Below are positions 9,182 through 30,753 of a DNA stretch of 64,000 nt, piece by piece; the stretch's first letter is position 1; each line of letters opens with the position of its first letter. This DNA is from Candidatus Bathyarchaeia archaeon (lineage in GTDB: Archaea; Thermoproteota; Bathyarchaeia; Bathyarchaeales; Bathycorpusculaceae). The translations under genes were made by a program, and so were the position numbers. Under the pieces are notes generated by a model. The model saw only the letters and a list, made by a program, of their open reading frames with translations. It was not told the origin of the DNA and searched no databases. The DNA is taken from NCBI GenBank assembly GCA_038882955.1, contig JAVZNC010000001.1, forward strand, positions 288,001-352,000, written 5' to 3'.

Positions 9182-10339
9182 ATGAGTGAAAGAAAACTGC
9201 TCATGATTCCTGGACCCACAAATGTTGACCCACGGGTTCTTCGCGTCCTAAGTAAGCCAACGGTCTCGCACACGGATTCCGAGTTCATCGAAGTTTTCAA
9301 AAAAACGCTCGAACGATTAAAGAAGGTTTTCATGACTGAAGGTGATGTTTTCGCTGTTGCCGGTTCTGGAACATTAGCCTTGGAGATGGCTGTTGCGAAC
9401 ATTTTGGAGCCAAACGATAAGGTCTTGAATATAGTAACTGGATTTTTCGGAGAATACTTTGTTAAAGCGTCGATGGCTCATGGAGCAACGCCTAAAGTCT
9501 TGGAGTTCCCATGGGGAAAAACCGCAAATCCAAGAATGGTTAAAGAGGCTTTAAAGGAGAGCGATTTTAAGGCGGTAACTGTTACGCATGTTGAAACTTC
9601 AACTGGGGTTGCAAACCCGATAAGAGAGATAGGCGAAATAGTGGCGGAAGAAAGCGACGCGTTCTACATTGTTGATGCTGTTTGTTCTTTGGGCGGAATG
9701 GAAGTTCGCGTTGACGAATGGAACATAGACATCTGCGCTTCTGGTTCGCAAAAGTGCATAGGTGTTCCGCCTGGGTTAGCCCTTCTTTCGGCAAGCAAAA
9801 AAGTTATAGAATTTCTTGAAAAAAGAAAAACCCCAGTCAATTTTTGGTATGGTAACCTTAAAAATTGGCTTCCAACAATGCGCGACCCATCAATATACTT
9901 TGCCACGCCGCCAGTTAACATGATTTACGCCCTATCAGAAGCGCTTGAAATAATCCTAAACGAGGGACTAGAGAACAGGTTTAGAAGGCACCACGTTTTC
10001 GCTGAAGCTTTCAGAGCAGCCATGAAAGCATTAAAACTAAGGTTGGTTGCGGATGAGGAGTGCGCTGCTGACACCGTTACGGCAGTACACTATCCAGAAA
10101 AAGTAGAGGATGCAGCGTTCAGAAGCGAAATGAAAAACCGCGGAATAATAGTGGCATCCACCCTTGGACCGCTAAAGGGAAAGGGCTTCAGAATTGGACA
10201 TATGGGAAACGTAAGCCAAAACGATATACTTTCCACAATAGCGGCTATAGAGACGACGTTAAAAAATTTGGGACACGCCATCGAGCTTGGAGCTGGATTG
10301 GCGGCAGCTGAAGAGAGGATTCTCTCTTTGAAACGGTAA
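9182..10339 (+). CDS. Class V PLP aminotransferase (alanine-glyoxylate/serine-pyruvate family)
   Basis: LMIPGPT, HVETSTG, DAVCSLGG, GSQKCIGVPPG, FRIGHMG. Confidence 0.9.
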   Translation: MSERKLLMIPGPTNVDPRVLRVLSKPTVSHTDSEFIEVFKKTLERLKKVFMTEGDVFAVAGSGTLALEMAVANILEPNDKVLNIVTGFFGEYFVKASMAHGATPKVLEFPWGKTANPRMVKEALKESDFKAVTVTHVETSTGVANPIREIGEIVAEESDAFYIVDAVCSLGGMEVRVDEWNIDICASGSQKCIGVPPGLALLSASKKVIEFLEKRKTPVNFWYGNLKNWLPTMRDPSIYFATPPVNMIYALSEALEIILNEGLENRFRRHHVFAEAFRAAMKALKLRLVADEECAADTVTAVHYPEKVEDAAFRSEMKNRGIIVASTLGPLKGKGFRIGHMGNVSQNDILSTIAAIETTLKNLGHAIELGAGLAAAEERILSLKR

Positions 10340-30043: not shown

Positions 30044-30753
30044 TTACATCCGGTGTCCATAGCGTCCAGTGAGTGGAACGAAGGCTACTCCGCCGAGGTT
30101 TTCCTCCTTCAGTTTTCCATCTGCAATTTTTGTGACTTTTATTAGGTTTTGGAATAGGTGGATGCTTCCAACGGGGATTAGCATTATTCCGTTTGGCTTT
30201 AGCTGCTCAATTAGTGGTTGTGGAATTGAAGGAGCAGCCGCGGTTACTAGGATTCTGTCATAGGGTGCCTTTTCTGGGTACCCTAACGAGCCATCTGCAC
30301 AGATTATTGTTACGCGGTCGCCGTATCCAGCGTTCATGATGTTTTTTCTTGCAAATTCAGCTAGTCCTTGAATGATTTCAACGGTGTAGACGTGGCCCCA
30401 CTCGCTTCGTGGCGCGTTGCTTGGCGCAACTGTTTCGGCTATTGTTGCTGCGTGCCACCCGCTTCCAGCGCCTATTTCAAGCACTTTTTGTCCTACTTCC
30501 AATTGTAGGGCTTCATTCATTATTGAAACCATGTTTCGCCTAGCTCAGCCTTTGCGCTGAGGCTATGTGGCGCGGATATTGTCTGCCCAAAACCAATTGG
30601 AAGAGGCGTGTCCACGGCGCTGTAGGACTGCATGTTTTCTGGGAGAAACTTTGCCCTTGGAAGCATTTGCATTGCCCTTATCACGTTTGGCGAGCGGAGG
30701 ATTCCCTCCCTTTTTAGACTTTCGATAAGCCTTTTCCAGTCTTCATCAACCAA
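30044..30753 (-). CDS. pcm: Protein-L-isoaspartate O-methyltransferase, split into two exons (30753-30567 and 30534-30044; 225 aa after joining)
   Basis: The 5' ORF contains PLPIGFGQTISAPH and the 3' ORF starts MVSIM...VLEIGAGSGW...APYDRILVTAA. The two halves are separated by a 32-nt frame-breaking insert. Confidence 0.9.
30535..30566 (-). other. Candidate 32-nt bulge-helix-bulge (BHB) mRNA intron in pcm
   Basis: Sense strand G-CGCC-AC^A-UAGC-C-UCAGC-GCAAAG-GCUGA-GCUA-GGCG-AA^A-C: a 4-bp central helix with two 3-nt bulges. Canonical cuts give GCG CCA CAC AUG (A-P-H-M) in frame. Confidence 0.8.

Follow-up and report, generated by a model that had tools for sequence, protein, structure and literature searches.

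An intron in the pre-mRNA of crenarchaeal cbf5 was reportedly described by Watanabe in 2002 and by Yoshinari in 2006. Introns of this type are marked by a motif, the bulge-helix-bulge (BHB), that is cut between the second and third residues of the bulges (Yokobori 2009, PMC2738675), and relaxed forms of the motif have been defined (Kaneta 2018, PMC5829648). PMC7714728 (Schwarz 2020) gives cbf5 as the only coding sequence then known with an archaeal tRNA-type intron, besides its own case, an intron in the 5' untranslated region (UTR) of HVO_1309 whose removal appears to matter for expression; the reference list of PMC12397907 (2025) has only three cbf5 papers for pre-mRNA splicing. Here we describe pcm, the gene of protein-L-isoaspartate O-methyltransferase, in a stretch of 64,000 nt from Candidatus Bathyarchaeia archaeon (assembly GCA_038882955.1, contig JAVZNC010000001.1, positions 288,001 to 352,000; hereafter the window). 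This gene is interrupted by 32 nt which, judging from their comparison among relatives, are very probably an archaeal BHB intron in the pcm pre-mRNA.

All coordinates are positions in the window, where pcm lies on the minus strand, with a TTG start at 30753, a stop codon at 30044-30046 and the 32-nt interruption at 30566-30535. The interruption falls inside the conserved SAPHM motif of Pcm and splits its His codon. Without splicing, the 5' open reading frame (ORF) encodes 77 aa (30520..30753) and the 3' ORF, read from the ATG at 30532, encodes 162 aa. Removal of 30535-30566 leaves 678 nt, that is, 225 codons plus the stop, and 225 aa is the length of natural uninterrupted Pcm homologues, which read SAPHMV over the junction. 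Exon 1 (52 bits, profile positions 4-67 of 210) and exon 2 (147.9 bits, positions 61-208 of 210) match consecutive parts of the Pfam family PCMT (PF01135; cut-off 20.3); both are above the curated cut-off and together they span the whole profile. There is a single true pcm in the assembly (1.54 Mb, 31 contigs, 95.6% complete), the remaining matches to the PCMT profile being weaker and located in unrelated open frames. The first-pass annotation of the window had claimed that pcm is split by 32 nt within a conserved motif and gives a 77-aa product if unspliced, that the cut rule excises exactly 30566-30535 to restore A-P-H-M and a 225-aa Pcm, and that both halves are otherwise intact; the sequence, the ORF list, the joined frame and the Pfam matches agree with it on all of this. 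Searches for other elements were negative: the window had no Rfam match at gathering scores and the intron surroundings had none at E values up to 1, ARAGORN called no tRNA in the window, and promoter and terminator patterns near pcm were at chance level.

The fold proposed in that annotation, a 4-bp CGCC/GGCG helix with ACA and AAA bulges, an inner stem, a G-C outer pair and an otherwise weak outer helix, can be read directly from the sequence (Table 1). Two 3-nt bulges on opposite strands with a 4-bp helix between them make it a BHB intron in the broad sense. It departs from the strict canonical hBHBh' form, since only a single G-C pair represents the outer helix h beside a strong inner helix h', and corresponds to the relaxed HBh' form, with a central helix plus one well-formed bulge and flanking helix and the other side weakened. 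Because the outer helix has only one base pair, cleavage at the 3' site would be expected to need an enzyme of broad specificity.

Table 1. Coordinates of the interrupted pcm gene and of the putative BHB motif (window positions)
Feature	Positions	Strand	Remarks and evidence
pcm exon 1	30567..30753	-	TTG start; last base is C, the first base of the split His codon; ORF list, Pfam PCMT, dN/dS
Candidate BHB intron, 32 nt, relaxed HBh' form with one closing outer pair	30535..30566	-	Frame restored on removal; same-position inserts; consensus fold and covariation
pcm exon 2, stop codon included	30044..30534	-	Opens with AC of the His codon, then ATG at 30532-30530; ORF list, Pfam PCMT, dN/dS
Central helix, exon strand CGCC	30569..30572	-	Ala codon bases 2-3 and Pro codon bases 1-2; paired in 117/117 loci
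Central helix, intron strand GGCG	30537..30540	-	Consensus fold, pair counts, per-locus check
5' bulge ACA	30566..30568	-	Predicted cut between 30567 and 30566
3' bulge AAA	30534..30536	-	Predicted cut between 30535 and 30534
Inner helix h' with 6-nt loop	30541..30565	-	UAGC/GCUA and UCAGC/GCUGA, one bulged C; fold
Whole motif span	30533..30573	-	Outer G 30573 with outer C 30533 as the sole outer-helix pair

The insert is widespread among relatives. Within the window's order, 56 of 61 genomes (the window's own included) had a match to exon 2, giving 57 loci, 45 of which carry an insert of 28-46 nt at the identical codon position and 12 of which lack it. Adding 80 named public loci brought the insert to 114 of 137 loci, or 98 of 119 once duplicates were removed. 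A class-wide sample of 151 genomes revealed short open frames in two further families outside the window's order, and all 20 loci fetched from short-frame families outside that order have the insert, including the extremes in length (21 and 57 nt). Pooling the unique Bathyarchaeia pcm loci, an insert of 21-57 nt occupies the exact position in 117 of 138, and 21 have none. Beyond the class, a phylum-wide sample of 201 genomes contained short frames in four families of other classes, from which 12 of 12 fetched loci have a 23-34 nt insert with the same architecture; in most other families of this sample the pcm frames are at least 215 aa long. At least 12 changes between intron presence and absence are required on the pcm tree of the 138 pooled loci. 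With a distribution that takes in several bathyarchaeial orders as well as other classes of the phylum, the pcm intron is old; its gains or losses number at least 12. It probably persists at the SAPHM site since the exon half of the helix sits in codons that cannot change.

Two side observations concern the gene itself. The intron-bearing pcm of other classes (loci L198-L209) have 59-65% identity to exon 2 of the window, compared with about 44-62% for many intronless genes in the class to which the window belongs; this closer similarity could be due to slower evolution or to the transfer of alleles that carry the intron. Besides, exon 2 had no match in any of five genomes (95-100% complete) of g17, a genus of the window's family, nor in one genome (98% complete) of the window's own genus. 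The gene may have been lost in g17 and in that congener, or may have been missed by the exon 2 query.

Conservation of the structure was assessed with RNAalifold and pair counts on an alignment of 98 intron-bearing regions. RNAalifold independently recovered the 4-bp helix and the 3-nt 5' bulge, as well as the inner helix, which stacks directly on the 3' side, with double-sided changes in 7 of the 10 consensus pairs. Over the full motif, 97.1% of the cells hold standard pairs versus 89.1% in shuffles, none of 500 of which reached the observed value, and double changes occur in 103 cells versus 26 in shuffles, a control that ignores relatedness, so that its outcome is not a probability. Sliding the registers by 1-3 columns keeps relatedness, and pairing was then 42% at most. 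All six consensus pairs of the inner helix change on both sides, and the four pairs adjacent to the bulge have 0-2 unpaired cells of 97. Locus by locus, none of the 117 lacks the outer G-C pair or has an unpaired position in the central helix, and in 112 of them the inner helix runs for four or more contiguous pairs from the bulge. Both bulges measure 3 nt throughout, the 5' one being ACA (109 loci), TCT (4), TCA (2) or ACT (2) and the 3' one AAA (76), AGA (24), ATA (8), ACA (6), TTA (2) or TAA (1). The first-pass annotation had suggested aligning pcm from relatives for intron presence or absence and compensatory stem changes, and this comparison, with 117 loci bearing the intron, 21 without it and a helix that covaries, came out as the intron reading predicts.

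The same loci constrain how the insert can be read. When the exons are joined behind the second base of the bulge, the codon formed is CAC (His) in all 117; intronless genes have CAC (18) or CAT (3) at this codon. As in cbf5, a cut between the second and third bulge residues creates an in-frame junction that matches the uninterrupted homologues. Read-through always meets a stop, 2-56 codons on (median 8): the insert length is not a multiple of three in 98 of the 117 loci, and the remaining 19 inserts all hold an in-frame stop. In some loci the 5' bulge is UCU or ACU, or the next base is G, and straight reading then gives Leu or Gln instead of His; because of this read-through codon, only splicing keeps the invariant His in those loci.

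Another way of dealing with the insert would be translational recoding, in which the ribosome bypasses it or shifts frame over it and no RNA is spliced. A stable hairpin right after the take-off region, resembling that of known bypass elements, would suit such a mechanism. However, insert lengths range between 21 and 57 nt, the pair of matching take-off and landing codons that bypass would demand is missing in the correct frame (landing on the downstream CAU would be in the wrong frame), and what is conserved is the pairing between exon and insert together with the two 3-nt bulges rather than any take-off or landing signal. We consider recoding very improbable.

The structure also leaves a mark on the coding sequence. 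Position two of the helix exon strand is occupied by the third base of the Ala codon, and in intron-bearing genes this codon is GCG (111) or GCA (6) and no other, whereas the 21 intronless genes use GCA (11), GCG (5), GCT (4) and GCC (1). With its intron partner the third base forms G:C in 109 loci, A:T in 6 and G:T in 2, and no A-C mismatch occurs, so GCG goes with GGCG and GCA with GGTG, a synonymous covariation. Family f45, from another class, has GCA with GGTG in all six of its loci. In intron-bearing genes the Pro codon's third position, with which the bulge begins, is restricted to A or T, and intronless genes have any of the four bases there. Just outside the motif, the third position of the Ser codon varies freely in both groups; since this is the next exon base, there is no longer outer helix.

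Selection on the two exons was estimated from the ratio of nonsynonymous to synonymous substitution rates (dN/dS), calculated from the 88 of 117 sequences with ungapped matches (422 and 227 pairs). These rough ratios are 0.117 (intron-bearing genes) and 0.177 (intronless genes) in exon 1, and 0.065 and 0.068, respectively, in exon 2. No internal stop was found in either exon in any of the 117 loci. Both exons are under purifying selection and neither looks like a pseudogene. The first-pass annotation had set relaxed selection on the 3' half beforehand as an observation that would speak against it; exon 2, at about 0.07, gives no sign of it, nor does exon 1 at about 0.12. A dead gene, whether a frameshifted pseudogene or an assembly error of 32 nt, is a reading to which we give hardly any credence. 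It would account for the broken frame and the 77-aa unspliced product, but the insert recurs at the same position in well over a hundred independent assemblies, the frames are free of internal stops with dN/dS of 0.07-0.12, and this is the only pcm copy in the genome. Independent assemblies and selection together exclude the pseudogene and artefact readings.

In public collections the gene is known mostly by its second half. Among the best 120 database matches, 105 are gene models consisting of exon 2 alone, annotated as a 162-aa 'protein-L-isoaspartate O-methyltransferase', and this exon-2-only annotation is systematic. Ten of the 120 are full-length proteins (225 aa). We considered whether they were spliced products of intron-bearing lineages and rejected it: all are nearest to intronless loci (86.8-100% identity) and have at most 87.1% identity to any intron-bearing locus.

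The gene models would also be expected if pcm were a split gene, that is, if two polypeptides of ~7-9 kDa and 18 kDa assembled into an active enzyme and the hairpin with GGCG/GGTG served translational coupling or ribosome binding. Besides the 162-aa proteins given by gene callers, this interpretation can point to the ATG at the start of exon 2, to the purine-rich GGCGA/GGTGA 4 nt upstream of it, and to purifying selection on both halves, which it predicts as well. Yet that ATG encodes the conserved Met of SAPHM, which intronless genes also have, and the GGCG strand follows the exon Ala codon instead of a fixed ribosome-binding consensus, with the mismatched combination of GCA and GGCG in none of the 117 loci. 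The two halves of the His codon, C and AC, are kept in all 117, although neither polypeptide would contain the His in loci with a Leu or Gln read-through codon. The read-through tail is variable in length (2-56 codons), and the exact 3-4-3 geometry would have no role. For these reasons a split gene seems improbable to us, and we favor excision of the insert as an intron.

A second interrupted gene in the same genome serves as an internal control. Its cbf5, located outside the window, has a 22-nt BHB insert (contig C6:46848-46869, minus strand) that breaks GTLDP inside its catalytic Asp codon (G|AC) and whose removal rebuilds the Asp. Its fold has CUCU/AGAG as the central helix, with two 3-nt bulges and an outer helix of 3 bp. 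In Crenarchaea, the cbf5 intron separates the catalytic Asp codon's first letter from its second (PMC2738675), so the position of this putative intron is the same as that of the proven one. Our literature search found no paper describing a cbf5 intron in Bathyarchaeia.

The first-pass annotation had also suggested that further short BHB introns are hidden in this lineage. In our motif-first scan of the genome, a candidate had to combine 3-nt bulges and a 4-bp helix with an inner helix no shorter than 4 bp, and its removal had to join two open frames of 50 codons or more. The 6343 raw matches were reduced to 1201 by a simple filter and to 177 by a codon-usage filter, of which 58 were no longer than 70 nt and 30 no longer than 50 nt. 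Follow-up covered the candidates of up to 50 nt. Only pcm and cbf5 are split genes among the 30. The other 28 were rejected, as 18 join two different Pfam families and 10 have one flank unmatched. Among these short candidates the suggestion thus held once, for cbf5.

Regarding the enzymes, the genome encodes one RtcB and two paralogues of the splicing endonuclease EndA, in both of which the two Pfam domains are present. In paralogue 2 (185 aa), a Thr replaces the EH-motif His of the M. jannaschii and M. kandleri enzymes, which we take to be the catalytic residue. Two facts agree with the catalytic assignment of this His: PMC5829648 names H303, and a His-to-Ala difference separates 3p1z_B from 3ajv_B. 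Nearest to paralogue 1 (212 aa) are the crenarchaeal catalytic subunits 2cv8_A, 3p1z_B and 3ajv_B, with which it aligns gap-free through their N-terminal loop; it keeps the His, in GIEHAP, and the Lys of its GIPKPK is aligned to residue 44 of the A. pernix chain. K44 is the lysine conserved in the Crenarchaea-specific loop, by which relaxed BHB motifs can be cleaved (PMC5829648). Two such paralogues match the pattern expected of a catalytic and a structural subunit, and judging by sequence the host encodes a broad-specificity, crenarchaeal-type two-subunit endonuclease together with an RNA ligase. ARAGORN called 46 tRNAs in the genome, 14 of them with introns, and therefore the splicing machinery is in use.

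Some details of these genes are worth recording. The paralogue without the His (L067:1471-2028, minus strand, contig C1) lies ~7.5 kb before the start of the window, and a 434-aa ORF on the same strand (L067:163-1467) begins 3 nt past its end. The endA gene of Haloferax shares its transcript with a gene for an aminoacyl-tRNA synthetase (PMC7714728). Among the tRNA calls, introns of 90-91 nt occur in two for tRNA-Trp, and one for tRNA-Phe has an 888-nt 'intron' (9317-10299 on its contig), possibly a false positive or else an intron of unusual length.

We propose that in the pcm pre-mRNA the exon sequence CGCC, belonging to the Ala-Pro codons of the invariant SAPHM, would pair with GGCG near the 3' end of the intron, forming a 4-bp helix between two 3-nt bulges, with the hairpin inside the intron stacked on one side and a single G-C pair closing the other. 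A two-subunit endonuclease, made up of the catalytic paralogue with the crenarchaeal loop lysine and the second paralogue without the catalytic His, would cut after the second base of each bulge. RtcB would then join C to AC, creating the CAC His codon and the frame of the 225-aa methyltransferase, while the unspliced mRNA would yield the 77-aa fragment only.

Position, length, geometry, covariation, codon restoration, selection and the enzymes all speak for a functional mRNA intron, as had been claimed from the window's letters. Several points weigh on the other side. Support for splicing comes from sequence comparison, from which we infer cleavage and ligation. Taken singly, the window's sequence does not fold with exceptional stability (z = -1.59, matched by 11 of 200 shuffles), and the significance of the motif comes not from this one sequence but from the comparison among relatives. 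The single base pair of the outer helix makes the motif relaxed rather than canonical, and BHB-shaped motifs are frequent by chance, as illustrated by the 28 of 30 short filtered candidates that are not split genes. The pooled set is enriched for intron-bearing loci, 20 of them (32 including the 12 from other classes) having been chosen for their short frames. With dS at 1.2-1.4, near saturation, the dN/dS ratios are rough. The 10 full-length proteins among the best 120 database matches include no spliced product. Finally, an ATG at the opening of exon 2, preceded by the purine-rich GGCGA or GGTGA, makes a separate C-terminal protein conceivable.

If the intron is real, it might do more than be tolerated. 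Because unspliced mRNA would yield only the 77-aa stub, the amount of Pcm could be set by the activity of EndA and RtcB, and the intron would act as a switch that couples protein repair to the state of RNA repair and splicing. XBP1/HAC1 mRNA contains a short non-spliceosomal intron whose removal, regulated by stress, shifts the frame to give the active protein, with RtcB as the ligase in animals. This IRE1-dependent unconventional splicing is named in PMC13149111. By analogy, pcm would be an archaeal counterpart, a role that we regard as unlikely, and we only infer a regulatory meaning for the dependence of pcm on the splicing machinery. The persistence of the intron over several orders and classes would fit selection for keeping it and not mere tolerance, and so would the observation that intron-bearing pcm of other classes are closer to the window's gene than are many intronless ones of the same class.

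We found no report of a pcm intron or of mRNA introns in Bathyarchaeia in the literature, in a search with most subscription journals outside its coverage. pcm would be the second protein-coding gene, after cbf5, reported with a tRNA-type intron, and with a second host, mRNA splicing by the endonuclease would no longer be a peculiarity of one gene. In both genes the insert sits in an invariant active-site codon. Conserved over more than 100 genomes and with covariation that extends into a synonymous codon position, the putative pcm intron offers a clean natural data set on how intron structure and the coding constraints of the exons coevolve. It also brings to light that databases systematically misannotate exon 2 alone as a 162-aa methyltransferase, and provides a simple test substrate for the uncharacterised splicing endonuclease of Bathyarchaeia.

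Of the known systems, the crenarchaeal cbf5 intron (PMC2738675) is the closest. Both would be short introns in a coding sequence, with a relaxed BHB motif, a cut between the second and third bulge residues, a link to a hetero-oligomeric endonuclease and a split codon in an invariant active-site motif, and both are patchy among relatives, pointing to gain and loss. They differ in the host gene, a protein-repair methyltransferase in one case and an RNA pseudouridine synthase in the other, and in lineage, the cbf5 intron belonging to Desulfurococcales or Sulfolobales and that of pcm to Bathyarchaeia and other classes. Moreover, splicing of cbf5 was shown by cDNA and in vitro cleavage, and the pcm intron is known here from its sequence. 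The intron of HVO_1309 in Haloferax volcanii (PMC7714728) is likewise a case in which the tRNA splicing endonuclease acts on an mRNA at a BHB; however, it interrupts an untranslated leader instead of a reading frame, comes from a euryarchaeon and was demonstrated both in vivo and in vitro. With the non-canonical HBh' and hBH tRNA introns and their (alpha-beta)2 or epsilon2 endonucleases (PMC5829648), pcm would share the motif class, the predicted enzymes and the dependence on the loop lysine, but its substrate is an mRNA without a tRNA body, in which the exon half of the helix is constrained by codons. The likeness to XBP1/HAC1 is one of analogy and not of membership, considering that the endonuclease and the RNA motif are different.

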